Shown here piece after piece: positions 15,640 to 36,785 of a stretch of DNA of 64,000 bases. Source of the DNA: an uncultured bacterium. Lineage in GTDB: Bacteria > Patescibacteriota > Minisyncoccia > Phycocordibacterales > GWA1-40-21. Position numbers and translations under genes: made by a program. The notes beneath the pieces were generated by a model. It searched no databases and was not told where the DNA came from. It saw only the letters and a list, made by a program, of their open reading frames with translations. Numbering within the stretch: the stretch's first letter is position 1; each line of letters starts with the position of its first letter. The stretch lies in NCBI GenBank assembly GCA_903831595.1, contig CAIKXY010000007.1:3944-67943 (forward strand), given 5' to 3'.

Positions 15640-16419
15640 TTAATCAAACTTCTTTCCCTGATTCCATGCTATTTCAAAAATAATTTTTAGAGAATTTACC
15701 AGCTCAGCAGATTTAATAACAACCGCGAAAGGGTTTTCCTCAAGCGATACTATGGCCAATTTATTTTCATACATAGCAAAATCCATCTTTAAATCGGTAA
15801 CGTCAGCCAAATATCTCACTTCTTGCCCGAGGACCTTAAATTTTTTCATGGCGTCTAAATCAAATTTATTATTTGCTACCAAGTGTTTCCCTTTAAGTGG
15901 AATTAAGCCCTTTTTATAATGTTTTACCCAATCTTCTAGTGCCCCAGGAAAGTGCCTCTCTATTTTTTCATATGAAGATACAAACAATGCTTCCTTAGAT
16001 TGGTTAATTTCTTGGTAGATATTCCAAATTCCTTCCTTATTTTCAATATATGATATTTTTGGTCTATTTCCACTTTTATTATGTAGAGTTCTGAACATCG
16101 GAATCATTTCTGAAAAATCTTTCGTAACAGATTTTAATTGGCTCAATATAACTAGTGGATCTGTTGCTTGGTATGTATTAATTTTTTTGTTTAAAACCAT
16201 ACTGACATAACCTCGTTTAATCAACCCCTCGAGTAGAACGTAAATTATTGAACGTTTTAATTCAGATTTTTTTGCTATGTCTGAAACATCTGCTTGCCCA
16301 AACTCAAGGAGGGCAAGGTATACTTTCGCCTCTTTTTCAGTAAAACCGGCTTTTTCTAAAAGTTTTAATAAATCTGTGTCCATACAGAATACGTTACCAA
16401 TGTTTGTATTATTTGTCAA
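15640..16419 (-). CDS. TrmB-family winged-HTH transcriptional regulator, paralog 1
   Basis: N-terminal LLKLLEKAGFTEKEAKVYLALLEFGQADVSDIAKKSELKRSIIYVLLEGLIKRGYV matches the TrmB HTH, plus a ~180-aa C-terminal putative ligand domain. Divergent from SBP-1. Confidence 0.65.
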   Translation of the reverse strand: MTNNTNIGNVFCMDTDLLKLLEKAGFTEKEAKVYLALLEFGQADVSDIAKKSELKRSIIYVLLEGLIKRGYVSMVLNKKINTYQATDPLVILSQLKSVTKDFSEMIPMFRTLHNKSGNRPKISYIENKEGIWNIYQEINQSKEALFVSSYEKIERHFPGALEDWVKHYKKGLIPLKGKHLVANNKFDLDAMKKFKVLGQEVRYLADVTDLKMDFAMYENKLAIVSLEENPFAVVIKSAELVNSLKIIFEIAWNQGKKFD

Positions 16420-16565
16420 TTTTTTTGATAAATATAAATAAAATAGCCATATTATTAGCCAAAATCAATAATATAATTATCAATATAATTGAACAAAAAT
16501 ATCAATGCGTGTAGCATTGTCTTTTTTAGGCGTAGGTATTATTATTAGTAATTTTTATCAAAGCA

Positions 16566-17687
16566 ATGAATAAAAGAATTAAATGGATTGGAGGGCTTGT
16601 AATCATTTTGGTAGTCATAATTTTGATTGCATCCCAACAATCAGGGCAGACAAATATTACTGGGCCAATTAAAATTGGTGCTATTTTACCACTAACGGGT
16701 GACTATGCCGTATTAGGCCAGGAAATACAGAAAGGAATTGATATCGCTGTTGACGAGGTTAATTCGCAGGGCGGAATAAATAACAGAAAAATGGAAATTA
16801 TTTATGAAGATGGTGGCATGGCAGATTTTCCAAAAATTACCTCAGCAGCTCATAAATTAATTGATGTAGACAAAGTGTATACAGTATTAGTTGATTCACT
16901 TACTACTATGAAACCGATTGCTCCACTTTTCCAACAAAATAAGATTCCTGCAATAATGATTTTTGATAATGCAGAATTAGGTAGTTACATTTTCTCTATA
17001 GGTTTTTCTACTCAAAAAACTGGAGAAAAAATGGCAGATTTTGTTTATAGCAAAAAGAATATAAAAGAAGTTGCAATCGTTGCCCAACTCGATGAAGTAA
17101 TGCAAACACTTTCTAAAGCATTCAAAGACAAATTTGAGAAATTGGGAGGCAAAGTTACTATCCTTGAAAATATCAATCCAAGTGAAAACGATTTTAAGAC
17201 AACAATCACAAAAATTAAAAACAGCAAACCACAGGGTATTTATTTTTCATTTGTTCAAGGAATAGATTTGTTTTTAAAGCAAATAAAAGAACAGAAGCTA
17301 AATTTGCCTATATTTGGTAACGATGCTGTCACGGAAGATGTTATTGCCGCTGCTGGCTCTGCTGCCGAAGGAGTATATTTTGCTAATTTCTATACCAATG
17401 ATAACCCAATACTAAAAAGTTTGACTGAAAAATACAAAGAAAAATATAATGAAGAACCACAGTTACTATTGTTCAATGCTTTTGGTTATGATGGAGTATT
17501 AGTTTTGAAAGAAGCAATTAAAAATATAAAAATCGTATCCCCTCAAAACATAACAGAATCATTGTACAAGATAAAAAATCTTGATACATCTAGTGGAGAA
17601 ACGATCTCTATTTCTCCTGTGGGGACAGTTGAAAGAACTGAGAAAATTTTTCAGATTCAGAATGGTAAGGGAATATCGGCAGAATAA
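16566..17687 (+). CDS. livK: Liv-type (type I periplasmic-binding-protein fold) ABC substrate-binding protein, paralog 1, TM-anchored
   Basis: N-terminal TM anchor, then IKIGAILPLTGDYAVLGQEIQKGIDIAVDEVNSQGGINNRKMEIIYEDGG, the LivJ/LivK-like pattern. Immediately upstream of livHMG. Confidence 0.8.
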   Translation: MNKRIKWIGGLVIILVVIILIASQQSGQTNITGPIKIGAILPLTGDYAVLGQEIQKGIDIAVDEVNSQGGINNRKMEIIYEDGGMADFPKITSAAHKLIDVDKVYTVLVDSLTTMKPIAPLFQQNKIPAIMIFDNAELGSYIFSIGFSTQKTGEKMADFVYSKKNIKEVAIVAQLDEVMQTLSKAFKDKFEKLGGKVTILENINPSENDFKTTITKIKNSKPQGIYFSFVQGIDLFLKQIKEQKLNLPIFGNDAVTEDVIAAAGSAAEGVYFANFYTNDNPILKSLTEKYKEKYNEEPQLLLFNAFGYDGVLVLKEAIKNIKIVSPQNITESLYKIKNLDTSSGETISISPVGTVERTEKIFQIQNGKGISAE

Positions 17688-17809
17688 TTTTAAATTACAA
17701 AGGATTTATCTAAAACAAAAAGACGAGTTTCCGCTTTGCGGAAACTCGTCTTTTTGTTGTGATTTTAGCTATTATTTATGCTAAAATTATCTTATTCCTA
17801 TTTATTTAA

Positions 17810-18691
17810 ATGGACATATTCGTACAATTATTAATTAACGGATTGATAGCGGGCGCCATATATTCTTTGGTAGCTTGTGGTTTTTCGCTTATTTATTCAA
17901 CAAACAAATTTATTCACTTCGCACACGGTGGAGTGATTATTGTTTCGTCCTATATTTTTTATACTCTTTTTTCTATTTTACATTTAGAATTTTATCTTTC
18001 TTGTATTCTTGCAATTCTTTTGGCTGGCCTTGTCGGCTATCTGATAAACCAATTTATTTACAAACCCTTCCGAAAAAGAAAAGCCAGCAATTCTATTTTG
18101 CTCATTGCCAGCTTTGGTGTTCTTATCTTTCTAGAATCAATGCTTCTAATTATTTTTGGTGCAAATGTCCAAACAATAGATTATATTCCAAACGCACAAG
18201 GCCTTTCTGTTTTGGGTGCGATTATTACACCGTTACAAATTGTCATAATTATTTCTTCAATAATTCTTTTAATTTTTTTCTATTTTTTTATGAAAAAAAC
18301 GAGAATCGGAAAAGCAATGCGAGCAGTTTCAGACAACCCTGACGTTGCAGAAATAGTCGGTATTTCCGCTAGTAAAATATATGCGTGGACTTTCACGATT
18401 GGTTCAATGGTGGCCGGTATCGCCGCAATTTTAATCTCCCTCGAACAAAATATTGAGCCTAGTATGGGTTCGAGCCTCATGATAAAGGGTTTTACCGCAG
18501 CAGTAATTGGGGGCCTTGGTAGCGTCCCTGGGGCAATATTTGGCGCATTTTTGCTGGGTTTTGCCGAAAACTTTGGTATTTGGTACCTACCTTCCGGCTA
18601 CAAAGACGCAATCGCTTTCGTTCTACTTTTTTTGTTTTTACTTTTTCGTCCAAACGGTATTTTGGGTCTTAAATATAATAATCAAAAATGA
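17810..18691 (+). CDS. livH: branched-chain amino acid ABC transporter permease LivH
   Basis: 293 aa polytopic, LivH-like (INGLIAGAIYSLVACGFSLIY). Confidence 0.8.
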   Translation: MDIFVQLLINGLIAGAIYSLVACGFSLIYSTNKFIHFAHGGVIIVSSYIFYTLFSILHLEFYLSCILAILLAGLVGYLINQFIYKPFRKRKASNSILLIASFGVLIFLESMLLIIFGANVQTIDYIPNAQGLSVLGAIITPLQIVIIISSIILLIFFYFFMKKTRIGKAMRAVSDNPDVAEIVGISASKIYAWTFTIGSMVAGIAAILISLEQNIEPSMGSSLMIKGFTAAVIGGLGSVPGAIFGAFLLGFAENFGIWYLPSGYKDAIAFVLLFLFLLFRPNGILGLKYNNQK

Positions 18692-19560
18692 TAAGCGCAT
18701 ATTTTATACATCTTTTAATATTGATTGGAATATATATTATTTTAGCAATTTCGCTTCAATTGGCGGTTGGTTATGGTGGATTGTTAAATCTTGGACATAT
18801 ATCATATTTTGGTATTGGCGCTTACGTGTACACCATTTTACTTTTCCACGGCGTTAATTTTTGGATTTGTTTTTTACTTGCTGGTTTTTCTGCCGCATTT
18901 TTTGGCTGGATGTCGGCCATCGGAATTCGTAAACTAAAAGGGGATTATCTTGCTCTCGTCACTCTCGGTTTCTCTTTTGTTACTTATGCAGTGCTTATAA
19001 ACTGGACAGAATTGACTCGTGGGCCGCTTGGTATTGCAGGTATTCCACGTCCAGTACTATTTGGTTTTGGCACAAACGAAAATATGGTTTATCTTGTTTT
19101 TGTATTTGTTATTGCTGCTATTTCATACTTTTTTATAAACAAAATCGTTTCTTCTCCGTTTGGTAAGGTTGTTGAGGCTGTTCGAGACGATGAAATCTCA
19201 GCAAAATCTTTGGGTAAAAGCACATTTAAAATAAAATGTATCAATCTTGCCACTTCGGCATTTTTTGCGGGTATCGCCGGTTGTCTTTATGCTTCATATA
19301 TTACTTTTATAGATCCATCATCTTTTACTTTCTCAAACGTAATTCCTATTATACTTATAATCATAATCGGTGGGCTTGCTTCTCTTCCCGGTACGATACT
19401 TGCCACATTTTTTATTATTTTGTTGCCGGAGCCACTTCGTTTTATTGGCTTCTCTTCGTCAATTGTTGGACCAGCAAGACAAATCGTTTACGCTCTGATT
19501 TTGCTTATCGTTTTGTATTATAAACCGCGAGGTTTTTACGGTAAATTAGATTTGGAATAA
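18688..19560 (+). CDS. livM: branched-chain amino acid ABC transporter permease LivM
   Basis: 290 aa polytopic, overlapping livH by 4 nt. LivM-like. Confidence 0.8.
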   Translation: MISAYFIHLLILIGIYIILAISLQLAVGYGGLLNLGHISYFGIGAYVYTILLFHGVNFWICFLLAGFSAAFFGWMSAIGIRKLKGDYLALVTLGFSFVTYAVLINWTELTRGPLGIAGIPRPVLFGFGTNENMVYLVFVFVIAAISYFFINKIVSSPFGKVVEAVRDDEISAKSLGKSTFKIKCINLATSAFFAGIAGCLYASYITFIDPSSFTFSNVIPIILIIIIGGLASLPGTILATFFIILLPEPLRFIGFSSSIVGPARQIVYALILLIVLYYKPRGFYGKLDLE

Positions 19561-19561
19561 C

Positions 19562-20311
19562 ATGTTAAAAATTAGAAACATACAAAAACATTTTTCTGGG
19601 ATTAAAGCAGTAGATGGCTGCTCTTTTGATGTTGAAAAGGGGAAAATAACCGCGCTTATTGGACCCAACGGTTCGGGAAAAACAACAATGTTTAACCTTA
19701 TTTGCGGTAATATAAAATCTGATGGTGGCGAAATTATCTTTTCTACCCCAACTGGAGAAAGAAACATTGTTGGCATGCCGATAGAAAAAATATCAAACTA
19801 TGGTATTTCAAGACTTTTTCAACAATCAAGACTTTTTAAAAATCTTACGGTATTGGAAAATCTTTTAGTATCGGAAGACAATGAAGACCAGAAATTTTGG
19901 AAAAATATATTTGGTTTGAATAAATTTGATAAAAGCAAAATAGACAAAGCAAATAAAATTCTGGGTGATTTTGAAATAAAAGATATTGCGCATCTTACAG
20001 CAGGGGAATTGAGCTTTGGTCAAAAAAGGCTTGTTGAAATTGCCAGAAATATTCTAAATTATCACACGGTTTTGGTGCTTGATGAGCCGGTGGCTGGAGT
20101 AAACCCAAAAATTCGTGAAAAAATCGCAAAAATAATTACTCAATTAAAAAAAGATGGAGAAACAATATTACTTATCGAACATGACATGCAATTTACCCTT
20201 GGTATATCTGATAAAGTGATTGTTATGGACGCTGGTAAAATTATTACCACGGGGACTCCAGAAGAAATCAGAAATAACCCTGAAGTTTTAAGGATATATT
20301 TGGGGAAATAA
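19562..20311 (+). CDS. livG: ABC transporter ATP-binding protein LivG
   Basis: GPNGSGKTT Walker A, LSFGQKRLVEIAR signature, LVLDEP Walker B. Confidence 0.85.
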   Translation: MLKIRNIQKHFSGIKAVDGCSFDVEKGKITALIGPNGSGKTTMFNLICGNIKSDGGEIIFSTPTGERNIVGMPIEKISNYGISRLFQQSRLFKNLTVLENLLVSEDNEDQKFWKNIFGLNKFDKSKIDKANKILGDFEIKDIAHLTAGELSFGQKRLVEIARNILNYHTVLVLDEPVAGVNPKIREKIAKIITQLKKDGETILLIEHDMQFTLGISDKVIVMDAGKIITTGTPEEIRNNPEVLRIYLGK

Positions 20312-20313: not shown

Positions 20314-21159
20314 ATGAATAATTTTAAATCATACGAAAGAAAATTGAGGGCTAGCTACTCTGAACTTGATGCTAAAACAGAAGATGGTTGGGCGATATTG
20401 GAATATAAGGGGAAAAAAATAAATGGCTACACTGATAAAGATTATATTTATCATTTTTTTACTAAACACATTGTAGACCTTCAGAAAAAAGATTTGGATA
20501 TTGTTGATTTGGGCGGCGGCGATGGAGTCCTATTGGACATTATTGGCAAACAGCTTGATGCAAAAGGAATAAAGGCCACTTTATTAAATATAGATAATAA
20601 TTCTAATAGTTTACTGCTTTGTAATAAAAAATTTCCACACATAAAAACAAAATTACAAAACGTATTATCGATTACTAATAGAAACCAAGCGGATGTTGTC
20701 ATAAGTCGTTTTTCTTTTCAGTATTTTAGCAAGGCAAATCAGATTAAATTAATGCGCGTAATCCATAATACACTCAAAAGTGGCGGTTTATTGATAGCGG
20801 AGTGGCCTTATGGTAATGATGAAAAAATATTTCACGAGGTTATGACAAATATTAAATCTATTATTTCTGGGGAAGAAGTAAGTGATTTAAAAAAAAGTAT
20901 TTATAATTTTTTACCAAATCATTTCAAAGATTTATTAAAAAAGTCCGGTTACGTCGGTATAAAAAAGGAACTAGGTGGAGTATTTATGCATTCTACAAAA
21001 TCGTGGAAAGACAGATTTAATATAAATGAAAATCAATCAAGGGAAATCGATTTGCTATATTTGAAATATTTTTTAAAAACAAAGAAATTATTTTTTAGAC
21101 AAAAAAACATTATATATTTAAAAAGCCATGTATGTTTTGCTCGTGCTTTTAAGAAATAA
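20314..21159 (+). CDS. class I SAM-dependent methyltransferase (translationally coupled to livG)
   Basis: IVDLGGGDGVLLD motif I. Its start lies 2 nt after the livG stop. Confidence 0.6.
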   Translation: MNNFKSYERKLRASYSELDAKTEDGWAILEYKGKKINGYTDKDYIYHFFTKHIVDLQKKDLDIVDLGGGDGVLLDIIGKQLDAKGIKATLLNIDNNSNSLLLCNKKFPHIKTKLQNVLSITNRNQADVVISRFSFQYFSKANQIKLMRVIHNTLKSGGLLIAEWPYGNDEKIFHEVMTNIKSIISGEEVSDLKKSIYNFLPNHFKDLLKKSGYVGIKKELGGVFMHSTKSWKDRFNINENQSREIDLLYLKYFLKTKKLFFRQKNIIYLKSHVCFARAFKK

Positions 21160-21163: not shown

Positions 21164-21913
21164 CTATTTTTCTGACGAAATGCCCCAGAGGGCTTGAAAT
21201 AGACCAAGTATCGTCTGATAGAATTCATTGCCCTCGATTACCATTCCAAAATTTGATTTAACAGTAGACATTATTGCAATTTTATTACCATAAATAAAAA
21301 CAGTTGAAGGAATATATATATCTTGCGGAGCATAGCGGATTTCTCTTAAAAAATCCTTTGTTCCCTTATAAAAATAGTCGTTTATTTCTGTTTTTCTCAT
21401 TCTAATGCTCATTCTTTTTATACTTTTTTGAATACATCTTTCAACATAATCTTTCATAAAATCGTCTCCGACTATTTCAATCATTGGCTCGGTTGAGCCA
21501 ATATATCTGACCTCTTTTTCACTAGAATTAATAATATCCTCATAAATATTTCTAATACCTTCCTGCCCATAATAAAATTTTACTAAAGATTTTGTTTTGT
21601 CTTCTTCATATAGATTGAGTAGGGAAGGAACAAACTTTTTTGCATAGTTTAATGCATTATTTGCCTGCCTTATAAAAGTTTCTGGTGACTCGGCTTTGTA
21701 AAGTTGTTTTTTACCCTGAACAATAATAGAAATTATGCCCCTTTTTGTGAGCGCATCTAAAATAATATAGCAGGTGGGTCTTTTTATCCCAGATTTTTTT
21801 GCTATATCAACAACCGTAAATGATTTGAAGGTCAAAGCCGCTAAATATAACCGTGCCTCTTTTTCTTTAAGCCCGAGTATTTCAAGTTGTTTTTCTTTGA
21901 TCATAATTAGCAT
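21164..21913 (-). CDS. TrmB-family wHTH transcriptional regulator, paralog 2
   Basis: LKEKEARLYLAALTFKSFTVVDIAKKSGIKRPTCYIILDALTKRGIIS N-terminal HTH. Divergent from SBP-2. Confidence 0.65.
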   Translation of the reverse strand: MLIMIKEKQLEILGLKEKEARLYLAALTFKSFTVVDIAKKSGIKRPTCYIILDALTKRGIISIIVQGKKQLYKAESPETFIRQANNALNYAKKFVPSLLNLYEEDKTKSLVKFYYGQEGIRNIYEDIINSSEKEVRYIGSTEPMIEIVGDDFMKDYVERCIQKSIKRMSIRMRKTEINDYFYKGTKDFLREIRYAPQDIYIPSTVFIYGNKIAIMSTVKSNFGMVIEGNEFYQTILGLFQALWGISSEK

Positions 21914-21933: not shown

Positions 21934-21950
21934 TGTCAATTTTATTGACA
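21934..21950. promoter_or_regulatory. perfect palindrome TGTCAAT-TTT-ATTGACA in the TrmB-2/SBP-2 divergent region (candidate operator)
   Basis: 17-nt inverted repeat. TGTCA/TGACA half-sites recur in the other divergent intergenic regions. Confidence 0.35.
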
Positions 21951-22074
21951 AAATATAATAATGTATATTAAGCTTATGGAATAAGGATATTTTATATTAA
22001 CTTGTTATTATATGTTGACATATATTATGATTGTCATATAATATACCCATTATTAATAATGTAATAATAAAAAC

Positions 22075-23214
22075 ATGAAAAATAAAAAAATATTAATTTG
22101 GTCTGGTATTGTAATGATTATTATAATCATAGCGTCAATATCTGTAGCAAATATCAAAAAATCGCAATCTTCTATTAAAATAGGAGCTAGTCTTGCTCTG
22201 ACTGGTAATCTTGCGTATCTAGGAAACGCAGAAATGAACGGACTCATTCTTGCAAGTGAGGAAATTAATAATGCTGGTGGAATACTAGGTAGAAAACTTG
22301 AAATTGTTACTGACAACAACCAAGGTGATGCTAAAATTGCAGTTTCAGGTATGGATAAATTGTTATCGATAGACAATTCAGATTTTATTTACACAGCATT
22401 TACTAATATTACACAAGCAATAAAAGGTCCTGTAGCACAAGCCCACAAAGTCCTTATATACGCTTCAACTGTCAGGGCAATAGCACAAGAAAATCCAAAT
22501 TTCTTTGTCGATTATTATGATGGCCAAGCCCATGGGACAGCTTTAGCACAAGCTTTCAACAAGTTTGGATACAAAAAATACAATTTGTTAGCCGAAAAAA
22601 GTGATACATGTAATGTTTTTGCAAAAGCTTTTGCAGATGAAGCTTCAACGCTAAATATTTCATTAAACAAGCAAGAAGCTTTTGATCCAACAAATAAAGA
22701 TTTTAGTACAACGTTACTTAAACTTAAAAATGGAAATTATCCGATAGTTATGTGCACTTGGAGAAGCGAAGATTTGGTAATGAAGCAGATGAAAGCACTG
22801 GGTATGATAAACACACAAACATTCCATGTAGTAGCTCCGTTTTTACCAAATGCAAACACAAAAGAAACGCTTTCTCTCTTTGCTGAAAATAAGGCAGTAA
22901 GTAGCTGGTATGGTTTCAGTATGGACCAAGCATCGATAAATCCAAAGCTAAAGGCTTTTGTAGATAGTTATAAAAAAAGATTTAATGTAGACCCAATATC
23001 AGATTCTGTATATACCTATGACGATGTTTACGCATTAAAAACTGCAATTGAATTGTGTAAAAGTACAGATACAGAATGTGTTTCAGCTAAATTAAAACAG
23101 GTTAAGATTGACGGAGTCGGGGGAGTTTTGAGCTTTAACAAAGACAAAGCTTCAGAACGTGATTCCTTAATTATTCAAAATATTGGAGGTGTTTGGAAGA
23201 AATTAAGTATATAA
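22075..23214 (+). CDS. Liv-type ABC substrate-binding protein, paralog 2
   Basis: TM anchor, then IKIGASLALTGNLAYLGNAEMNGLILASEEINNAGGILGRKLEIV. Confidence 0.75.
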   Translation: MKNKKILIWSGIVMIIIIIASISVANIKKSQSSIKIGASLALTGNLAYLGNAEMNGLILASEEINNAGGILGRKLEIVTDNNQGDAKIAVSGMDKLLSIDNSDFIYTAFTNITQAIKGPVAQAHKVLIYASTVRAIAQENPNFFVDYYDGQAHGTALAQAFNKFGYKKYNLLAEKSDTCNVFAKAFADEASTLNISLNKQEAFDPTNKDFSTTLLKLKNGNYPIVMCTWRSEDLVMKQMKALGMINTQTFHVVAPFLPNANTKETLSLFAENKAVSSWYGFSMDQASINPKLKAFVDSYKKRFNVDPISDSVYTYDDVYALKTAIELCKSTDTECVSAKLKQVKIDGVGGVLSFNKDKASERDSLIIQNIGGVWKKLSI

Positions 23215-23223: not shown

Positions 23224-23254
23224 AAAAGCCGCGCCCGAAGGGCGCGGCTTTTTT
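23224..23254. terminator. bidirectional terminator hairpin
   Basis: AAAAGCCGCGCCCGAAGGGCGCGGCTTTTTT. Confidence 0.75.
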
Positions 23255-26109: not shown

Positions 26110-26160
26110 ATTATTTGATATTTAGCATCTACGCTATGGCGTAGATGAAGCATTTTGATT

Positions 26161-27104: not shown

Positions 27105-27132
27105 TTACAACAGAAATTTATTAGTTAGTCTA
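27105..27132. promoter_or_regulatory. conserved upstream motif ACAACAGAAATTTATTAGTTAGTCTA (shared by SBP-4/5/6 promoters)
   Basis: Near-identical copies at 29264-29290 and 31511-31534, all ~50-95 bp upstream of the SBP start codons. Confidence 0.4.
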
Positions 27133-28283: not shown

Positions 28284-28287
28284 GTTA

Positions 28288-28320
28288 AAACAAAAAGCCC
28301 CGAAAGGGGCTTTTTGTTTT
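28288..28320. terminator. bidirectional terminator hairpin (AAAAAGCCCCGAAAGGGGCTTTTT family)
   Basis: GCCCC-GAAA-GGGGC stem-loop flanked by an A-run and a T-run. The identical core recurs at 30541-30566. Confidence 0.75.
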
Positions 28321-29170: not shown

Positions 29171-29263
29171 AATATATCCAATTTTATTTTATCCTTATAA
29201 TACAAGGCAAATATCAAATATTTGTCGCAATAAAAACTCAAAACATTATAATACTTGTATAAT

Positions 29264-29290
29264 CACAACAGATTTTTATTAGTTAGTCTA
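29264..29290. promoter_or_regulatory. conserved upstream motif CACAACAGATTTTTATTAGTTAGTCTA
   Basis: Copy of the 27105-27132 motif upstream of SBP-5. Confidence 0.4.
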
Positions 29291-29382: not shown

Positions 29383-30528
29383 ATGGAAAAGAAAAAAGGA
29401 AATTTGTGGTCAGTGGTTATCGTTGTGATTTTAGTAATTATAATCGGAGGACTATTTGGATCACAAAGTGCTGGAAGTAAAAGTATAAAAATAGGATATA
29501 TAAGTCCTATGAGCGGGCCAGCAGCTGCTTATGGAGACTATACCAGAAAAGCTTTTCAGCTTGGATTAGATGAATGGAACGCAAATCATACTGACAAGAT
29601 GCAAGCAATCTACGAAGATGGAAAATGTGCTCCAGCCGACGCTGTAACAGCAGCAAACAAATTAATCAATGTAGACAAAGTAAATTTTTTGATGACTTTC
29701 TGTACCGGAGAAACAAACGCTGTGGCTCCAATAGCAGAGCAGAGCAAAATAATACTTTTGACATCTGGAACAACTGCTCCAAATATTGTTAAAGGGAAGT
29801 ATATCTTTAGAAATATCGGTTCTGTGGGGAGCGGATTGCCTGTTTTGACTAAATTAGCATATGATTTTAACAAACAAATTGCATTAATATCTGAAAATAC
29901 TGATTATGCAGCTTCTACAAAAAATGGTTTTACTCAGCAGTACACAGCGCTCGGTGGAAAAGTATTGTTCGATGAATCATTTGATGCAAAAAGTTTAGAC
30001 TTCAAAACAATAATTACAAAATTGAAAGAAAACAAAGTAGAAAGTATTTTTGTTGTTGTACAGTCTCTTGATAATTCTGCAGTTTTGTTTAAACAAATGA
30101 AAGAGTTGAATTATCACCCACAGATATTTACTACAGAGGGGGCCATTAGCACTAAGGCGCTAGATAAATATACCAAAGAAGGTTATGAAAATATTGTTGA
30201 AGGGTCAATACTTGTTCAACCTTATTTTGACAGAGAAAATCCTAAAGCAAAAGCAATGATTAGCACTTATGATATGAAATTTGGTACATCAACAGGGCCA
30301 ATTCCAGAAAGTTACTTGGCAACACACTATGATGCTGTTTCTTTGATAGGGGAAGCAGTGGAAAGCGTTGGAAATAAAGCCGATGCTGTAAGTAATTATT
30401 TCATAACCAAAATCAGCAATTGGAGTGGGGCGATTGGCTCGTTTGGATTTGATAAGACTGGGGATACTATAGTTCAAACTCAAACAAAGATTGTTAAAGG
30501 CGGAAATATTGTGGAGTATAAAAAATAA
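29383..30528 (+). CDS. Liv-type ABC substrate-binding protein, paralog 5
   Basis: IKIGYISPMSGPAAAYGDYTRKAFQLGLDEW...YEDGKCAPAD...FCTGET. Confidence 0.75.
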   Translation: MEKKKGNLWSVVIVVILVIIIGGLFGSQSAGSKSIKIGYISPMSGPAAAYGDYTRKAFQLGLDEWNANHTDKMQAIYEDGKCAPADAVTAANKLINVDKVNFLMTFCTGETNAVAPIAEQSKIILLTSGTTAPNIVKGKYIFRNIGSVGSGLPVLTKLAYDFNKQIALISENTDYAASTKNGFTQQYTALGGKVLFDESFDAKSLDFKTIITKLKENKVESIFVVVQSLDNSAVLFKQMKELNYHPQIFTTEGAISTKALDKYTKEGYENIVEGSILVQPYFDRENPKAKAMISTYDMKFGTSTGPIPESYLATHYDAVSLIGEAVESVGNKADAVSNYFITKISNWSGAIGSFGFDKTGDTIVQTQTKIVKGGNIVEYKK

Positions 30529-30540
30529 GCAATAAAATTA

Positions 30541-30566
30541 AAAAAGCCCCGAAAGGGGCTTTTTTA
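30541..30566. terminator. bidirectional terminator hairpin (same family)
   Basis: AAAAAGCCCCGAAAGGGGCTTTTTT. Confidence 0.75.
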
Positions 30567-31367
30567 ATCTCTCACCGATCTTGAATCCCAAGTTAAATCA
30601 AATATAACGCGCATCATTCCATTGAGTGCTTTATCTTCCATAATAACACCAGTTAATTTATTTTCTCCAAAATTTGTAATAGCAATTTTTGAATCACCGT
30701 ATATTACTATTTCACCATTAAAAACAAATTTTTCTGGCGCAATATATTTTATGACAGGATAAAATTTCTTGGGCGTATTTTCTGGATAAATTGGTAAATG
30801 TTTTCTGTTTTCCGGGGTGTCTGGAATAAATATTTTTGTCGTTATTCCAAGTTCAATTTTTTTCTTTGCATAATTTTTAATAAATTTATCCGGCACTAAC
30901 GGAATTAGTTCACTTGCTTTTGAGAAGGCTAACATTTCGTATGGTTTCTTTATACTTATCATATCCTCATACATAGATAGCAGTCCATCGAGACCTTCAT
31001 AGTAGGTAACCTTTGAATGGTCTTTTAGTAATTCAAATAAATGAGTTATTTCTGGAATTAATGTTTTTGTTTTTTCTAAAGAATTCTCAGATTCGCTTAC
31101 TTTATTTTGGGCGTACCTTAATATTTTTTCTGGTTTTTCTATTTGATAAAATAGTTTATTTTTTCTTTCAATTTCATTTACAAGCCCACGAACAGATAGG
31201 GCAGTAAGTACAAAATATACCGTTGCCCTTTTTAAATCAGTATATTCAGCTATTTTGGAAGGGAACGCTCCACCAAGCTCAAGAAGTGATACATACACCA
31301 AAGCTTCCTTATCTGTGAAGCCAGTTTTTTCTAGTTTTTTGATTAATATCTGGTTTTTTACTTGCAT
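30564..31367 (-). CDS. TrmB-family wHTH transcriptional regulator, paralog 6
   Basis: LEKTGFTDKEALVYVSLLELGGAFPSKIAEYTDLKRATVYFVLTALSVRGLV. Confidence 0.7.
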   Translation of the reverse strand: MQVKNQILIKKLEKTGFTDKEALVYVSLLELGGAFPSKIAEYTDLKRATVYFVLTALSVRGLVNEIERKNKLFYQIEKPEKILRYAQNKVSESENSLEKTKTLIPEITHLFELLKDHSKVTYYEGLDGLLSMYEDMISIKKPYEMLAFSKASELIPLVPDKFIKNYAKKKIELGITTKIFIPDTPENRKHLPIYPENTPKKFYPVIKYIAPEKFVFNGEIVIYGDSKIAITNFGENKLTGVIMEDKALNGMMRVIFDLTWDSRSVRD

Positions 31368-31396
31368 GTGTTAAGTATATCAAGCATGACAATAAT

Positions 31397-31414
31397 TGTC
31401 AATTTTTACTGACA
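31397..31414. promoter_or_regulatory. inverted repeat TGTCA-N8-TGACA in the TrmB-6/SBP-6 divergent region (candidate operator)
   Basis: TGTCAATTTTTACTGACA. The same half-sites occur at 21934-21950. Confidence 0.3.
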
Positions 31415-31510
31415 GAATATGTCATGTATAAATATAGTCATATGATAAGCCATATATATAATATATGTGTCAGCATTAGCACGCAAAACGCTATTGATAT
31501 TATATAATAT

Positions 31511-31534
31511 CAGCAGATATTTATTAGTTTGGCA
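31511..31534. promoter_or_regulatory. conserved upstream motif CAGCAGATATTTATTAGTTTGGCA
   Basis: Third copy of the ACAGAWWTTTATTAGTT motif, ~45 bp upstream of the SBP-6 ATG at 31575. Confidence 0.35.
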
Positions 31535-31574
31535 ATAGATGCTAAAATATTACAAGTTAATTATCAATAAAAAT

Positions 31575-32681
31575 ATGAATAATAAAAAAAGAAATCTCAC
31601 GTCTATAATTATTGTTTGTGCTTTAGTCATCATAGTTATAGGGCTATCGGTTTGGCAAAAAGCAATATCACCAAGGGGTGATATAAAAGTTGCATACGTA
31701 TCATCTCTATCAGGAGATGCAGGAGTATGGGGACAAAGTTTACAAAAAGGTTTTGATTTTGCATTGAATGAAATTAATGCGAAAGGTGGTATTAATGGCA
31801 GAAAGATTACTGCTGTCTATGAAGATGATAAATGCGATGCAGCAACAGGAGTTACTGCATTCAATAAGGTCATCGGAATTGATGGGGTAAAATATATTAC
31901 AGGAACAGTATGTTCTTCTGTTGCAATGAGTGTTGAAAAAAATACACAAGCAAATGGAGTTTTCTATGTTGCTTCTGGTGCAACTGATCCAGAAGTTACA
32001 AAACAAGGAAATGGCCTAGTATTTAGACCATGGGCATCAGATGCTTATGATGCGCAGGAGGTAGGTAGAGATTTGATATCAACGTTTGGCTTAAAAAAAG
32101 TCTCAGTAATTTCTATGAGTGACATTCCTAGTGGTGAAGCAATAAAAAACACTTTTAAAGATGCTGTTGTTGCAAATGGTGGACAAGTTGTTTCTGAAGA
32201 AATGGTAGTTTCAACGAATAAAGATATAAAAACATCCGTTATGAAATTAATCGATAGTTCTCCTGAGGGAGTATATATCGCATCTCTTCCGGATCAGACG
32301 GTTTTAATTATTTCTCAGTTAAAAGCTCTAGGTTACAAAGGAAAGATATTTGTTTATAGTGCTTCGGCTGCGTCAGAAGGTTTTGCGACAAAGGTAAAAA
32401 ACAAAGATAGTGTTTTTTATGTTTTTCCTGTCACAAATCAAGAGACAAATTTCTGGAATGATTACAAAACACAAACCGGCACAAATGCAGACTTACTTGT
32501 AGCCCTTGGTTATGACAGTATGAACATGATTGCTGATGGTATTAAAAGCTGTGGAGAAAATAATACTTGTATAAGAGATTATTTTATAAATGTAGAAAAT
32601 TACCAAATGTCTAGAGGGAAAGTTAGCTTTGATAAGTATGGAGATGTTAGTGGTTTGAAGTATGAAATAAAAGCTTTATAA
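31575..32681 (+). CDS. Liv-type ABC substrate-binding protein, paralog 6 (ORF track start 31539)
   Basis: ATG 31575 gives an MNNKKRNLTSIIIVCALVIIV signal anchor. IKVAYVSSLSGDAGVWG...YEDDKCD...TVCSSV. Confidence 0.75.
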   Translation: MNNKKRNLTSIIIVCALVIIVIGLSVWQKAISPRGDIKVAYVSSLSGDAGVWGQSLQKGFDFALNEINAKGGINGRKITAVYEDDKCDAATGVTAFNKVIGIDGVKYITGTVCSSVAMSVEKNTQANGVFYVASGATDPEVTKQGNGLVFRPWASDAYDAQEVGRDLISTFGLKKVSVISMSDIPSGEAIKNTFKDAVVANGGQVVSEEMVVSTNKDIKTSVMKLIDSSPEGVYIASLPDQTVLIISQLKALGYKGKIFVYSASAASEGFATKVKNKDSVFYVFPVTNQETNFWNDYKTQTGTNADLLVALGYDSMNMIADGIKSCGENNTCIRDYFINVENYQMSRGKVSFDKYGDVSGLKYEIKAL

Positions 32682-32710: not shown

Positions 32711-33856
32711 ATGGAAAATAAAAAAGGAAAATTATTAGTGTGGGCAATTGTGATCGTTTTGGTGATTGTTGGTATTTTTTTACTATCAAATAGTAAACCA
32801 GTCTCAACAGAGCCAATAAAAATCGGTTTTGTTGCACCGCTTACTGGCCCAGCTGCTGCTTATGGTGAGGTAGAAAAGAATGCAGTTATTATGGCACTTG
32901 AAAAAATTAATGGTAGTGGGGAAACGAAAAGAAATGTTGAAGTTATATATGAGGATGGTAAATGTAATGGTCAAGATGCGGCAACAGCAGCGCAAAAGTT
33001 AATCAATGTTGATAAGGTCAAAATTATTTTAGGTGGTTTGTGTAGTAGCGAAACACTAGCTATCGCCCCGATATCAGAATCAAATAAAGTTATACTTTTC
33101 TCTGCTTTTTCTTCTAGTCCAGCCATTACAAATGCGGGGGATTATGTATTTCGTAATTCACCATCAGACTTAGATTTTGGAAAAGCTGATGCACAATTTA
33201 TTATAAAAAAAGGTGTTAAGAATATTGCTATTATTTCTGAAAATGCTGATTACTCACAAGGTGTACGAACAGTTATGAAAAATGCTTTCCAAAACAATGG
33301 AGTAAATGTAATAGCAGATGAAGTATTTAATTCAGATGTAAAAGATTTTAGAACGCAATTAACAAAAATAAAGTCGCTAAAACCAGAGGCAATATATATT
33401 AATCCAGGAACATCTCCAGATGTGGCGGGAATAATTCCAAAGGAAATGAAAGAACTTGGAATGACAAACACAAAAATATTTGGTAACTATGTTTTGGGGG
33501 ATAAAGTAGCACTAAAAATTGGGGGATCAGCAATGAATGGTATTATATTTAGTGATTATACAGATCTTGCGTTATCAAATCAGGCTATTATAGATCAATA
33601 TAAAACTGAATTTCAAAAAGACCCAGCAAATAATTATCCTTTGATGGCTAGATATGATTCAGTATTTATTATTACGGACGCAATTAGAAGTTGTGGAACT
33701 GATGACAGTAGCTGTATAAAAAATTATTTATATAAAATGAAGAGTTTTTCTGGTGCTCTTGGTACATATAGATTCGATTCTAATGGGGATTTGTTGAATA
33801 AAGAATTGGCAGTTCATAAAATAATTCAAAATGGAGTCGCTGTGTTGATAAAATAA
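32711..33856 (+). CDS. Liv-type ABC substrate-binding protein, paralog 7 (tandem with paralog 6)
   Basis: IKIGFVAPLTGPAAAYGEVEKNAV...YEDGKCNGQDAATAAQKLINVDKV...GGLCSSETLA. Close to paralog 8. Confidence 0.75.
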   Translation: MENKKGKLLVWAIVIVLVIVGIFLLSNSKPVSTEPIKIGFVAPLTGPAAAYGEVEKNAVIMALEKINGSGETKRNVEVIYEDGKCNGQDAATAAQKLINVDKVKIILGGLCSSETLAIAPISESNKVILFSAFSSSPAITNAGDYVFRNSPSDLDFGKADAQFIIKKGVKNIAIISENADYSQGVRTVMKNAFQNNGVNVIADEVFNSDVKDFRTQLTKIKSLKPEAIYINPGTSPDVAGIIPKEMKELGMTNTKIFGNYVLGDKVALKIGGSAMNGIIFSDYTDLALSNQAIIDQYKTEFQKDPANNYPLMARYDSVFIITDAIRSCGTDDSSCIKNYLYKMKSFSGALGTYRFDSNGDLLNKELAVHKIIQNGVAVLIK

Positions 33857-33859
33857 TAC

Positions 33860-33888
33860 AAAAAGTCCCGAAAAGGGGCTTTTTGTTT
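33860..33888. terminator. bidirectional terminator hairpin (variant of the same family)
   Basis: AAAAAGTCCCGAAAAGGGGCTTTTTG. Confidence 0.7.
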
Positions 33889-33890: not shown

Positions 33891-34634
33891 CTATTTATTT
33901 TCATCTGGCAACATCTCCCACATAATTTCGAAAATTTGTTTTATTGAATCGTGAATTTTAGGGCTTTCAATAATAATACCTATTTTATCTGAAAAATTCA
34001 TAATAGCGGTTTTATTTTTGTCATACAGCATAATTTCATTTTCCATGTTAAATTTTTTCTCGCTAACCATTTTAGATTTTCTGAGTTGTTGGACATTCTT
34101 TCCAACATACGGTTTTAATTTTTCAGCATTAGGTAGTATGGTTCGTATGTGGATATTTTTTTTTAACCTTTCTGGCACATAGATTTTTTCTTGGTATGAA
34201 TCACTTCCAATTGTACTTAAGCCAGCAAACCAAGATTGAATCTCCTTATTGGGTGTTAAAAGTGTATCTCTGTATACTTCCTTTAACCCCTCTTCGCCCT
34301 CAAAATAACTTACTGTGGGTTTTTTATCAATTGCTGATCCTATTGATAAAAGATTGACCATGTTTTGTTCTAATTCTTTTTTGTTTTCATCAAGAATAGA
34401 CAAAATCATTTTAGGGCTTTGTGCAGTATAATATTTTAGATTTTTTCTTACTGATTGACTAACTAGCCCTTTTTTTATTAGGTTTTCAAGTTCTATATAA
34501 GTAGTTGGTCTTTTTACTCCGGATTTTTGTGAGATTCTAGACGCAGTCGTTTCCCCAAGTTCATAACTAGCAAGGTATACTGAGGCTTCTTTGGGTGATA
34601 GACCAGCTTTTATTAAGATGTTAATGTAATTCAT
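33891..34634 (-). CDS. TrmB-family wHTH transcriptional regulator, paralog 7 (divergent member)
   Basis: N-terminal HTH (LIKAGLSPKEASVYLASYELGETTASRISQKSGVKRPTTYIELENLIKKGLVS). 247 aa. Confidence 0.65.
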   Translation of the reverse strand: MNYINILIKAGLSPKEASVYLASYELGETTASRISQKSGVKRPTTYIELENLIKKGLVSQSVRKNLKYYTAQSPKMILSILDENKKELEQNMVNLLSIGSAIDKKPTVSYFEGEEGLKEVYRDTLLTPNKEIQSWFAGLSTIGSDSYQEKIYVPERLKKNIHIRTILPNAEKLKPYVGKNVQQLRKSKMVSEKKFNMENEIMLYDKNKTAIMNFSDKIGIIIESPKIHDSIKQIFEIMWEMLPDENK

Positions 34635-34830
34635 TGTTTTTTAAGCAAATTGTTCTACTGTTATTAAAACTGACAACAGATAGATTATATACAAATACAT
34701 ATAATATGTCAAGTAAAATAAAGGGATATTAGAAATAGCTACAATTTTACATTGTCAATTTATCAAACACTAATTGCATATTCGCAAAATAAGCATATAA
34801 TTGATGTGTTATAAGTTAATTATTAAAAAC

Positions 34831-35973
34831 ATGAATAAAAACAATAAAATATTAATAAGTTTAGTTGTGATAATAATCGTTATCATTTTAGGATCTTTAC
34901 TAATAAATAACAAACCAGCCTCAACTGAACCAATTAAATTTGGTTTTATCGCACCACTTACTGGTGATGCTGCGATATATGGAACAGATGAAAGAAATGC
35001 AACTGCACTTGCTGTACAAGAGATCAACAATGCTGGCGGAGTAAATGGTAGAAAAATTGAAGTTTTGTACGAAGATGGAAAATGTAACGGAAAAGATGCT
35101 GCAAACTCTGCACAAAAGCTCGTTAATGTTGACCAAGTCAGAGTAATTATTGGAGGGGGATGCAGTAGTGAAACTTTAGCTGCAGCGCCTGTTGCAGAAG
35201 CAAATAAAGTAATTTTATTCTCACCATTTTCGAGTAGCCCAGCCATAACAGACGCAGGAGACTACGTTTTCAGAAATTATCCATCCGATTCAGAGGTTGT
35301 AAGACAACAAGCCCGACTTGTTATCAATTATGGTTACAAAAAAATTGCAATAATTTCAGAAAATTCTGATTATGCTATTAGTTCAAAAACTATTTTTTCT
35401 GATGAAGTTAAAAAACAAGGTGCTCAAATTGTAGCAGATGAAATATTTGCTCAGGGTGCTCGAGATTTTAAAACAAACATTCTAAAAATAAAATCAGCCA
35501 ATCCAGACGCAATATTTATCAACCCTCAATCTGGAGTGACTGGCGGTTTGTTATTAAAACAACTCAGAGAGATGGGAGTTAATACTCAAGCTTTTAGTTA
35601 CTTTGTGTTTGGTGATAAAGATGCAATAAAGACAGCAGGGTCAGCAATAAATGGAATGATTTATTTTGATACCGTTGGTCTTATAACAGCAAAAGGGCAG
35701 GCTTTCAACGATAAATACATTGCACAATTTGGTCAGATACAAAGCAGCGCATATGGGGTTGGGGCACAGTACGATGCAGTTCATATTTTAGCAAACGCTG
35801 AAGCAAAATGTTCTGATGATACCGCTTGTATAAAAAATTATTTATATAAAATGTCACCATATGATGGAGTTATCGGTAAATACAACTTTGATTCAAATGG
35901 AGATATTAAAGGTATAAGTGCACTTGTCCCAAAGATAGTAAAAAATGGAGTAGCGGAATTATATATTAAATAA
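34831..35973 (+). CDS. Liv-type ABC substrate-binding protein, paralog 8 (ORF track start 34801 TTG)
   Basis: ATG 34831 gives an MNKNNKILISLVVIIIVIIL anchor. IKFGFIAPLTGDAAIYG...YEDGKCNGKDAANSAQKLVNVDQV...GGGCSSETLA. Confidence 0.75.
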   Translation: MNKNNKILISLVVIIIVIILGSLLINNKPASTEPIKFGFIAPLTGDAAIYGTDERNATALAVQEINNAGGVNGRKIEVLYEDGKCNGKDAANSAQKLVNVDQVRVIIGGGCSSETLAAAPVAEANKVILFSPFSSSPAITDAGDYVFRNYPSDSEVVRQQARLVINYGYKKIAIISENSDYAISSKTIFSDEVKKQGAQIVADEIFAQGARDFKTNILKIKSANPDAIFINPQSGVTGGLLLKQLREMGVNTQAFSYFVFGDKDAIKTAGSAINGMIYFDTVGLITAKGQAFNDKYIAQFGQIQSSAYGVGAQYDAVHILANAEAKCSDDTACIKNYLYKMSPYDGVIGKYNFDSNGDIKGISALVPKIVKNGVAELYIK

Positions 35974-35983
35974 ATACTCAAAC

Positions 35984-36016
35984 AAAAAAGCGGTGCTTTC
36001 CAGCACCGCTTTTTTG
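35984..36016 (+). terminator. rho-independent terminator
   Basis: AAGCGGTGCTTTCCAGCACCGCTTTTTTG. Confidence 0.75.
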
Positions 36017-36044
36017 TTTAATAAATTTAAGTTATAATCCTAAT

Positions 36045-36785
36045 ATGTTAAGTATAAAAAAACTTTATTCTGGTTACAATAAATCGGAAATATTACATGG
36101 TGTAGATATTGATGTAAACGCCGGAGAGATCGTTGTCCTTATCGGCCCAAACGGAGCGGGGAAGTCGACTGCATTAAAAAGTATATTTAGTCTTACAGAT
36201 ATTTATAGTGGAAAGATTATTTATAATGATAGAGATATAACAAAACTAAAAACATTTGAGCTTATAGAGCTTGGTATAAGTTTTGTGCCACAAGGGAGGC
36301 AGCTTTTTCAAAACATGACTGTTTTAGAGAATCTTCAGATGGGGGCCTTTATGATAAGAGATAAAGAAGTTATTCAAAAGGGTATTGAAGAAGTCTTCAA
36401 AAAGTTTCCTGTCTTGAAAGAAAAACAAAACCAGATTTCTGCAACTCTTTCTGGTGGGCAACAGCAGCTAGTAGCTATTGCAAGGGCTTTAATACAAAAT
36501 CCACAACTTTTATTACTTGATGAGCCATCGCTCGGTCTTTCTCCTAAAATGATGCAGGAAGTATTTGATAAAATTGTAGAAATAAAAAATTCCGGTGTTG
36601 ATATTTTAATTGTGGAACAAAATGCAAGGCAAGCTATGTGTATCGCAGATAGAACATATGTATTGGAAGGGGGGAAAATAGGAATAAGTGGTGGAAAAGA
36701 TATCATAGATAATCCTAAAATTCGAGAAATATACTTTGGGAGTGATTTAAACCCTGAAAAAGTGAAAGCTTGTCCTATATTATAA
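36045..36785 (+). CDS. livF: ABC transporter ATP-binding protein LivF
   Basis: GPNGAGKST Walker A, LSGGQQQLVAIARAL signature, LLLDEPSLGL Walker B. 246 aa. Confidence 0.85.
   Translation: MLSIKKLYSGYNKSEILHGVDIDVNAGEIVVLIGPNGAGKSTALKSIFSLTDIYSGKIIYNDRDITKLKTFELIELGISFVPQGRQLFQNMTVLENLQMGAFMIRDKEVIQKGIEEVFKKFPVLKEKQNQISATLSGGQQQLVAIARALIQNPQLLLLDEPSLGLSPKMMQEVFDKIVEIKNSGVDILIVEQNARQAMCIADRTYVLEGGKIGISGGKDIIDNPKIREIYFGSDLNPEKVKACPIL

Follow-up and report, generated by a model that had tools for sequence, protein, structure and literature searches.

Organization of the Array

The stretch of DNA considered here, which we call the window, comprises 64 kb of contig CAIKXY010000007.1 from an uncultured bacterium of the Patescibacteriota, and it carries an array of regulator and transporter genes at positions 15640-36785, flanked by efp and recA. 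A first-pass annotation had described this array as seven minus-strand regulators of the TrmB family, divergently paired with eight plus-strand substrate-binding proteins (SBPs) of the Liv type and sharing a single LivHMGF translocator. All seven regulators (R1 to R7) indeed match the TrmB profile PF01978, with E-values of 8e-16 to 6e-11 and scores of 42.6-58.1 bits that lie above the gathering cutoff of 25.6, and all eight SBPs (S1 to S8) match the Peripla_BP_6 profile PF13458, with E-values of 3e-40 to 2e-56 (Table 1). Coordinates and family matches also agree that livH, livM, and livG lie behind the first SBP gene and livF behind the last one, around 16 kb away. Together, these genes provide the components of a HAAT-family importer, namely two BPD_transp_2 permeases, a LivG-type ATPase with BCA_ABC_TP_C, a LivF-type ATPase, and Peripla_BP_6 SBPs. 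Within the window there is a single LivHMGF set, and the rest of the 64 kb holds no further regulator, SBP, or Liv gene.

Some details of the initial description have to be amended. The pairing is divergent overall, with the exception of R3, which is divergent from the gene of methyltransferase 2, so that S3 is second in its unit. There is one importer core, as proposed, but no separate core operon, since livHMG belongs to the first unit, headed by R1, and livF to the last one, headed by R7. Two S-adenosylmethionine (SAM)-dependent methyltransferases are embedded in the array, and the one thought to be translationally coupled to livG starts after a gap of two nucleotides from the livG stop codon. 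Finally, we place the probable starts of R1 and R5 at internal ATG codons (16383, giving 248 aa, and 29122, giving 267 aa) because of the promoter positions, the alignment of the paralogs, and the call of the same gene in another assembly.

Table 1. Genes and predicted transcription signals of the array, in window positions.
Feature	Position	Strand	Evidence or remark
R1, TrmBL2-type regulator	15640-16383, open reading frame (ORF) extends to TTG at 16419	-	PF01978 E 8e-16; R6-like profile full-length E 5e-36
R1 candidate dyad, imperfect, TGTCAATTTTTTTGATA	16414-16430	.	left arm is the R1 -35 (TTGACA, minus strand)
S1, LivJ-family binding protein, putative N-terminal membrane anchor	16566-17687	+	Peripla_BP_6 E 9e-54; hydrophobic N-terminus without lipobox
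S1/livH strong hairpin, terminator- or attenuator-like	17715-17757	+	20-bp stem
livH, permease	17810-18691	+	BPD_transp_2 E 2.5e-41
livM, permease	18688-19560	+	BPD_transp_2 E 1.3e-44
livG, ATPase	19562-20311	+	ABC_tran plus BCA_ABC_TP_C
Methyltransferase 1, class I SAM-dependent	20314-21159	+	2 nt downstream of livG
R2, regulator	21164-21913	-	PF01978 E 7e-14; profile match E 6e-34
R2 promoter, 12/12	21939-21912	-	sigma-70 match
R2 candidate dyad, TGTCAATTTTATTGACA	21934-21950	.	overlaps 12/12 R2 promoter, -35 at 21939-21934
S2, binding protein	22075-23214	+	Peripla_BP_6; 12/12 promoter at 22015-22042
S2/R3 bidirectional terminator	23224-23252	.	hairpin scan
R3, regulator, most divergent	23253-24023	-	PF01978 E 6e-11; AlphaFold2 model
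R3 promoter, 11/12	directly upstream of R3	-	sigma-70 match
Methyltransferase 2, HemK/PrmA-like SAM fold, without canonical NPPY motif	24168-24917	+	first gene of R3-divergent unit
S3, binding protein	24952-26079	+	Peripla_BP_6
R4, regulator	26161-26964	-	PF01978; R6-like profile match
R4 promoter, 11/12	26998-26971	-	sigma-70 match
R4 candidate dyad, TGTCAAGTAAAACCGACA	26993-27010	.	left arm is the R4 -35
S4, binding protein	27180-28283	+	Peripla_BP_6
S4/R5 bidirectional terminator	28286-28321	.	hairpin scan
R5, regulator	ORF 28319-29170, probable ATG start 29122	-	PF01978; 267 aa
R5 promoter, 11/12	29157-29129	-	sigma-70 match
R5 candidate dyad, TGTCGAATATATCCGACA	29152-29169	.	overlaps R5 -35
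S5, binding protein	29383-30528	+	Peripla_BP_6
S5/R6 terminator	30534-30571	.	hairpin scan
R6, regulator	30564-31367	-	PF01978; AlphaFold2 model
R6 promoter, 11/12	31402-31374	-	sigma-70 match
R6 candidate dyad, TGTCAATTTTTACTGACA	31397-31414	.	overlaps R6 -35
S6, binding protein	31539-32681	+	Peripla_BP_6; one unit with S7, 29-nt gap between
S7, binding protein	32711-33856	+	Peripla_BP_6
S7/R7 terminator	33858-33886	+	hairpin scan
R7, regulator	33891-34634	-	PF01978; R6-like profile match
R7 promoter, 12/12	34712-34684	-	sigma-70 match
S8, binding protein	34801-35973	+	Peripla_BP_6; solved relatives are branched-chain amino-acid binders
S8/livF strong hairpin	35978-36021	.	
livF, second ATPase	36045-36785	+	NCBIfam LivF E 1.6e-68, 231 bits; ABC_tran

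Family and Structure of the Regulators

Judging from profiles and models, all seven regulators are TrmB-family proteins with the short architecture of TrmBL2, without the sugar-binding subdomain of TrmB; their length is 247-267 aa, compared with 338 for TrmB. The AlphaFold2 models of R6 and R3 are confident (predicted local distance difference test scores of 90 and 88.9, respectively), and they match TrmBL2, TrmB, and proteins with the phospholipase D (PLD) fold. For R3, TrmBL2 chains rank first (E 1e-13), followed by TrmB and then by Zucchini and PLD3. The three parts of TrmBL2 are present in about 260 aa: a winged helix-turn-helix, a long coiled-coil helix of the dimerizing type (residues 81-114 in R6 and 73-96 in R3), and a single PLD-like alpha/beta domain. 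Structural alignment to 2f5t and 3qph spans 126-158 of their 233-335 residues. The C-terminal domain finds nothing in Pfam or NCBIfam and was identified only by structure prediction. None of the seven regulators contains the HxKxxxxD (HKD) motif of PLD/Nuc catalysis, and none matches the PF11495 effector domain at E <= 0.01.

At the sequence level, the NCBIfam equivalogs for TrmB and TrmBL1 give 19-39 bits against cutoffs of 600-650, with matches that end by model position 170 of 338-341. With the TrmBL2 model (NF041141), R1, R2, and R7 score 15.6-21.4 bits where the cutoff is 530, and R3 and R6 have no match, so orthology with TrmBL2 is not apparent from sequence. In turn, an independent R6-like profile, built solely from homologs in other genomes, matches the entire length of R1, R2, and R7 (E 1e-34 to 1e-42) and residues 6-142 of R3. 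Tyr51 is invariant in alignments of the 7 regulators and of 83 sequences and corresponds to TrmB Tyr50, a DNA-contact residue; the second DNA-binding residue listed for TrmB is Asp51 (PMC4158304). The C-terminal subdomain of TrmB, of around 70 residues, has been described as containing its sugar-binding domain (PMC4158304). Because the regulators of the array lack it, the sugar-sensing label that the kinship with TrmB had suggested is not borne out and should not be transferred to them. The residues of their C-terminal domains are kept within a regulator subfamily and not between paralogs.

Some members of the family found in other genomes are much longer, with 510-1079 aa that match the 267-position profile in 3-7 stretches (P0138, P0156, P0169, P0175, and others, as well as L087, 1175-3556). 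These proteins seem to unite between two and four whole regulator modules in a single polypeptide. The neighborhoods of distant members have little to say: that of P0156 holds hardly any annotated genes, that of one fused member of 793 aa is uninformative, and the contig of another distant member, P0200, is too short to tell anything.

Substrate-Binding Proteins

The closest solved relatives of S8 are 4gnr, LivJ (1z15), and LivK (1usg), all of which bind branched-chain amino acids. We aligned S1 to S8 with E. coli LivJ at about 25% identity, a level at which positions in the C-terminal lobe are uncertain. The LivJ residues that we take to contact the alpha-amino and carboxylate groups of the ligand are Ser79, Thr102, Tyr202, and Glu226, and we likewise assume the Cys53-Cys78 disulfide of the LivJ structures. 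In this alignment, S4 to S8 retain the equivalent disulfide together with Ser/Thr79 and Ser/Thr102, while S1 to S3 have none of these. Tyr202 is found in S4 alone and Glu226 in S5 alone, and the positions equivalent to Tyr150, Tyr202, Glu226, and Phe276 vary by paralog, with only S7 and S8 alike there. Such differences between pockets fit separate ligands for each SBP, as far as sequence can indicate. The conserved cysteine pair (YEDGKC...CSSE), which had been read as a mark of recent duplication among SBPs 4 to 8, is the ancestral LivJ disulfide.

All eight SBPs begin with a basic N-terminus that is followed by a strongly hydrophobic stretch of around 20 residues without a lipobox, and the same is true for 124 of 131 SBP homologs in other loci. 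An N-terminal helix probably anchors them in the membrane. The annotated N-terminal extensions of S6 (MLKYYKLIINKN-M; 31539-31575) and S8 (MMCYKLIIKN-M; 34801-34831) resemble each other, and in each case a second methionine follows, with the basic and hydrophobic anchor typical of these SBPs behind it. Translation of both genes probably starts at the downstream ATGs, and the likeness probably reflects a common 5′ leader.

Transcription Units and a Candidate Operator

As envisaged in the first-pass annotation, each regulator/SBP unit looks separately transcribed, with strong promoters of its own and bidirectional terminators. Directly upstream of R2 to R7, the best minus-strand sigma-70 matches reach 11-12 of 12 positions. 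In R4, R5, and R6, the -10 element ends 7 nt before the ATG, and R1 looks alike by eye (regions 16384-16419, 26965-26998, 29123-29157, and 31368-31402). This spacing, which is kept in many species, leads us to predict leaderless mRNAs for R4, R5, R6, and probably R1. Terminator-like sites are more frequent than expected, with 25 observed compared with 9.3 +/- 2.3 in shuffled sequences, and terminators lie at the convergent gene ends at 15606, 23224, 28286, 30534, and 33858. The strong hairpins between S1 and livH and between S8 and livF could be the usual device for making more SBP than membrane components. In the long 5′ regions of the SBP genes, no riboswitch or other leader RNA was found with Rfam, searched over 15000-37500 at a permissive E-value; the matches in this region were sub-threshold and lay on terminator hairpins.

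The regulator promoters also overlap an inverted repeat. In the window it is present for R1, R2, R4, R5, and R6, and none was found for R3 or R7. Across the loci of other species (described below), TGTC-N9/10-GACA occurs 1.9 times per kb in divergent intergenic regions compared with 0.063 in all fetched DNA, the exact form TTTGT-N12-ACAAA is found in 11 of 78 regions (0.1 in shuffles), and a looser form is found in 52 of 166 regulator upstream regions, where 0.2 are expected from shuffles with a maximum of 2. In 34 of these 52 regions, the end of the looser dyad is 28-29 nt away from the ATG. Read in the direction of the regulator, the cross-species consensus is TTTTGTY(C/G)GT-N5-TTGACAAAA, followed by 17 nt, TAnnnT, about 7 nt, and the ATG, and it is this spacing that identifies one arm of the dyad as the -35 of the regulator's own promoter.

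The other, upstream arm is variable in part and covaries with the recognition helix of the regulators. In 27 of 29 cases, the arm TTGTTCG is accompanied by Asn46 and Lys52; TTGTCGG comes with Asn52 and either Lys or Arg at position 46 (11 of 12), TTGTTAG with Met52 (4 of 6), and TGTCAG with Phe, Leu, or Ile52. Residue 52 directly follows the invariant tyrosine and occupies the position of TrmB Asp51. In a rough neighbor-joining tree made without the recognition helix, the combination of Lys/Arg46, Asn52, and TCGG occurs in three separate clusters, and common ancestry thus probably does not explain all of the covariation. Since the variable arm covaries with a residue beside the DNA-contact tyrosine, there is good indirect evidence that the regulators bind the dyad and, hence, would at least autoregulate.

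In many R6-like intergenic regions, a second conserved palindrome (CCTT-N7-9-AAGG or GGCT...AGCC), with a TATATT-like hexamer behind it, is located around 20 nt past the dyad on the SBP side, for example at 27028-27050 of the window. A distal SBP promoter and a site for a second protein are both possibilities.

Distribution across Patescibacteria

A profile search of 5.8 billion proteins returned 348 close homologs of the regulators, with source names such as "Patescibacteria group bacterium", and among 1.84 billion representatives at 50% identity, 1,916 belong to the family at E <= 1e-30 and, at the looser E <= 1e-10, 9,991. We scanned one genome per GTDB species and obtained 79 loci, which were annotated with profiles made from the window proteins. 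All of the loci that carry a taxon name belong to Patescibacteria (Paceibacteria or Parcubacteria groups); Taylor-, Nomura-, Kaiser-, Uhr-, Kuenen-, Moranii-, and Falkowbacteria are represented, along with many generic "Saccharibacteria" labels.

The search for synteny in related genomes shows that the pairing of regulators and SBPs is conserved across Patescibacteria. Among 163 regulators, the upstream neighbor is a divergent Liv-type SBP gene in 95 cases, another divergent gene in 62, and co-directional in 6; conversely, 89 of 136 SBP genes are directly divergent from a regulator, and 11 of 136 stand behind another SBP gene. Many species have arrays of 3-7 units among which livHM, livG, and livF are interspersed (for instance, L004, L006, L022, L049, L054, L061, L065, and L068), and the window, with 7 regulators and 8 SBPs, is at the top of this size range. 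In 11 of 21 cases, livH lies behind an SBP gene that is divergent from a regulator, and none of the 79 loci has more than one livH or livM. The numbers of regulators and SBPs correlate across loci (r 0.60). For R6-like regulators, the partner is an S7-like SBP in 23 of 29 cases, and for R3-like regulators, it is an S3-like SBP in 6 of 9, which is only a trend because types were assigned from the best BLAST match at around 28% identity.

Of 60 other divergent partners, 8 are radical SAM/B12-binding enzymes and 4 are class V aminotransferases; a Vut_1 vitamin transporter and a sodium:solute symporter also occur, as do many small proteins, and most of the partners have no Pfam match (loci L026, L034, L037, L039, L040, L042, L046, L048, and L059, among others). 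Given such varied partners, this is a family of general local regulators whose commonest partner is a Liv-type SBP. In L004, a further regulator copy is found near an NMT1-type ABC importer.

Age of the Paralogous Units

It had been proposed that R4, R5, and R6 and SBPs 4 to 8 are recent tandem duplicates, which proves mostly wrong on comparison with other assemblies and among the paralogs. R4, R5, and R6 are mutually 57-63% identical, while the remaining regulator pairs are 19-29% identical (19-22% for R3 and any other regulator). Each of the three has closer relatives in other assemblies, at 94% and 74% identity for R4, 76% for R5, and 90% and 87% for R6, and orthologs of R3 and R7 in other species are 63-75% identical. 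The SBPs are 22-34% identical pairwise, with S4 to S8 at 27-34%, apart from S7 and S8 at 52%. Because the closer relatives lie in other assemblies, the array is made of old paralogous units and not of a recent burst of duplication. At the DNA level, the likeness among units 4, 5, and 6 comprises the regulator gene and around 160 bp of intergenic sequence (26159-27126, 28277-29284, and 30522-31529) and ends before the SBP coding sequence. Either a module of regulator plus control region was placed beside unrelated SBP genes or the SBPs diverged much faster.

Proposed Mechanism and Alternative Explanations

With moderate confidence, we propose that the array is a conserved uptake island in which one HAAT translocator is served by eight anchored SBPs from seven TrmBL2-type-regulated units, with control that responds to solutes. 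A regulator dimer would probably bind the dyad TTTGTY-N10-RACAAA, one arm of which is the -35 of its own, often leaderless, promoter. This binding would autoregulate the regulator, and the dyad itself, or a linked binding event, would set the transcription of the divergent SBP unit. The PLD-like domain would sense a small molecule, most likely the imported solute or its product, and the SBPs would deliver different amino-acid-like solutes to the common translocator, whose genes, placed behind strong hairpins in the units of R1 and R7, would yield less protein than the SBP genes. What points to one-to-one regulation of the SBP promoters is the conserved divergent arrangement, and ligand sensing by the regulators is likewise something that we infer.

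Several observations weigh against this proposal. TrmBL2, the nearest solved structure, is a chromatin protein without a known ligand (PMC4158304), and the subdomain that makes most of the sugar contacts in TrmB is absent from the regulators. The covariation between arms and residues is partly confounded by phylogeny. The dyad is located at the regulator promoter, around 100 bp from the best promoter-like site of several SBP genes (such sites include, in several species, extended -10 elements around 40-60 nt before the ATG), and no consistent second site was found near the SBP promoters, where the class-specific half-sites AACARAA or TTGACR turned up in only a few loci. As the dyad arms of R1, R2, R4, R5, and R6 are similar, paralogs may cross-regulate one another. 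The single translocator is a result at the level of the locus, obtained from 64 kb of the genome. Furthermore, if the regulators were simple repressors, the translocator would need units 1 and 7 to be on, which fits poorly with independent control of the SBPs.

Some of these points would suit an explanation in which the regulators only autoregulate or coat DNA in the manner of TrmBL2, so that the pairing with SBPs reflects co-inheritance or shared bidirectional promoters and SBP expression is largely constitutive or set by other means. The nature of TrmBL2 (PMC4158304), the conserved position of the dyad at the regulator's own -35, the lack of a consistent second site at the SBP promoters, and the likeness of the arms among paralogs all agree with it. 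We nevertheless consider it rather unlikely, given that 96% of the regulators are divergent from their upstream neighbor, as is usual for local regulators, that regulator and SBP counts rise together, that R6-like/S7-like and R3-like/S3-like pairs recur, that the covariation with residue 52 indicates sequence-specific recognition, and that the C-terminal domains are conserved within subfamilies and differ between paralogs, as expected for distinct effectors. The inverted repeat could also consist of the back-to-back -35 hexamers of divergent regulator and SBP promoters, with no operator at all. On the regulator strand, the left arm indeed reads exactly or almost exactly TTGACA and has a good -10 at 16-17 nt, and at R6, TATAGT stands 18 nt behind the right arm, CTGACA, on the plus strand. 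Yet the second arm is mostly CGAACAAAA or CCGACAAAA, a poor -35 with no consistent -10 at 16-18 nt, and it is conserved and covaries with residues of the recognition helix; at R2, moreover, the second TTGACA has no -10, and the 12/12 promoter of S2 lies 65 bp further on. This explanation therefore seems improbable to us.

We give slightly less credence still to the idea that some of the SBPs serve another transporter elsewhere in the genome or are receptors at the cell surface, used for instance to sense or contact a host. It would accommodate the lack of the LivJ disulfide and of Ser79 in S1 to S3 and the surface anchoring of all SBPs, and only 64 kb of the genome is visible; against it, all eight match one HAAT-type SBP family strongly, their genes lie intermingled with the split livHMG and livF, in the window as in many species, and no other transporter of the HAAT family occurs in any 20-kb locus. 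As for an assembly artefact caused by collapsed or mis-joined repeats, we found nothing in its favor and regard the array as real. Three further assemblies have contigs that match the window with 100% identity, over 13.9, 4.0, and 4.0 kb, and the layout recurs in dozens of species, in many independent genomes. The most similar internal DNA segments are 63-69% identical, a maximum that is too low for collapse or misjoining. The chance of an artefact is negligible.

A wider and more doubtful generalization can be put forward tentatively: short TrmB-like proteins might be the main one-component sensors of Patescibacteria, their HKD-less PLD-like domain an unrecognized sensor of amino acids or other metabolites, residue 52 the determinant of operator specificity, and the regulator with its bidirectional control region a portable module set before unrelated SBP genes. 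Such a module, if real, would allow reduced genomes to build regulated uptake for each nutrient around a single translocator. Patescibacteria (the candidate phyla radiation, CPR) have tiny genomes, cannot make most of their building blocks, and are mostly uncultured. Seven regulators in 21 kb of a probably small genome (related contigs measure 0.57-0.75 Mb) suggest a sizeable share of the transcription factors. The ligands of the SBPs would reveal what is taken up from the surroundings or from hosts, and the TrmB branch, the predicted operator, and the predicted specificity residue make this type of locus testable in a heterologous host.

Methyltransferases and Other Genes of the Window

We considered the methyltransferases as a defining component of these loci and rejected them, as methyltransferase 1 has no homolog in the other annotated loci and is thus lineage-specific, and methyltransferase 2 has one in the loci of only two other species (L036 and L071). 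There are hints of a loose, non-universal link between the uptake units and SAM-dependent methyltransferases. In L005 (10805-13378), an operon of one SBP and two methyltransferase genes stands beside a regulator/SBP pair, in an arrangement that differs from that of the window.

Outside the array, a class I aminoacyl-tRNA synthetase of 1169 aa (3384-6893, plus strand) contains a complete His_Phos_1 domain (residues 504-668, E 4e-35), whose insertion splits the catalytic domain; the architecture recurs in L005 (19433-20804), a related Patescibacteria contig. From its domain set (tRNA-synt_1, Anticodon_1, and DUF5915), we take the enzyme to be similar to isoleucyl-tRNA synthetase. The ORFs at 43122-46907 (plus), 1397-3307 (minus), 417-1241 (plus), and 41369-42193 (plus) have no Pfam match at E <= 1e-5; two of them encode 1261 and 636 aa, and their neighbors carry DUF11, PKD, LTD, and DKNYY domains, which we assume to be typical of surface proteins. 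A 117-aa Glucodextran_B protein (38360-38713, minus strand; E 2e-9) is encoded between recA and ftsK, and ARAGORN found no tRNA or tmRNA genes in the whole 64 kb.

Comparison with Known Systems

In the searchable literature, which leaves most subscription journals outside its coverage, we found no paper on TrmB in CPR or Patescibacteria, nothing relevant on Liv transporters in Parcubacteria, and no description of the array, in agreement with the first-pass annotation.

The use of several SBPs by one HAAT translocator has a precedent in BraC3 of Rhizobium (PMC2978685). Sequence records of E. coli likewise annotate livJ and livK with one livHMGF. Like E. coli Liv and Rhizobium BraDEFG/BraC/BraC3, the array has two permeases, two ATPases, and more than one Peripla_BP_6 SBP per translocator. 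In contrast to them, it has eight SBPs instead of two or three, these carry an N-terminal helix as a probable anchor instead of being periplasmic, and its translocator genes are divided over two units at opposite ends of the array, 16 kb apart. E. coli liv is under the control of the global regulator Lrp, whereas seven of the eight SBP genes of the array stand in units with their own divergent regulator, S6 and S7 sharing R6.

TrmB, located beside its maltose/trehalose ABC importer in Thermococcales, is the founding example of its family (PMC4158304). The array shares with TrmB and TrmBL1 the PF01978 winged helix, the DNA-contact tyrosine, the dimerizing helix, an adjoining ABC importer that includes an SBP, and a palindromic operator, which in the array is a candidate. 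It differs from them in the missing sugar-binding subdomain, the bacterial host with its sigma-70 promoters, the Liv-type instead of sugar-type SBP partner, and the presence of seven paralogs in one locus. TrmBL2 of Thermococcus/Pyrococcus (5bpd, 5bqt, and 5box) is the best full-length structural match and has a similar length (264 aa), but its sequence is only 12-16% identical to those of the regulators, and it coats DNA with little sequence preference, whereas the position-fixed, covarying dyad of the array points to specific binding.

In its arrangement, the array also resembles the LysR-type regulators, which are divergent from their target and have a site overlapping their own promoter; here, too, autoregulation is implied. 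The protein family and effector domain are unrelated, and the analogy is thus only functional. It is common for a local regulator to be divergent from a transporter gene, and the individual components are ordinary; it is their conserved combination, with the predictions that follow from it, that gives the locus its value. What is new is a large bacterial branch of short TrmBL2-like regulators that is centered on Patescibacteria and its systematic pairing with Liv-type SBPs in multi-unit arrays around one split translocator, to which we would add a predicted operator that shares an arm with the -35 of a leaderless promoter and a candidate residue for its specificity.

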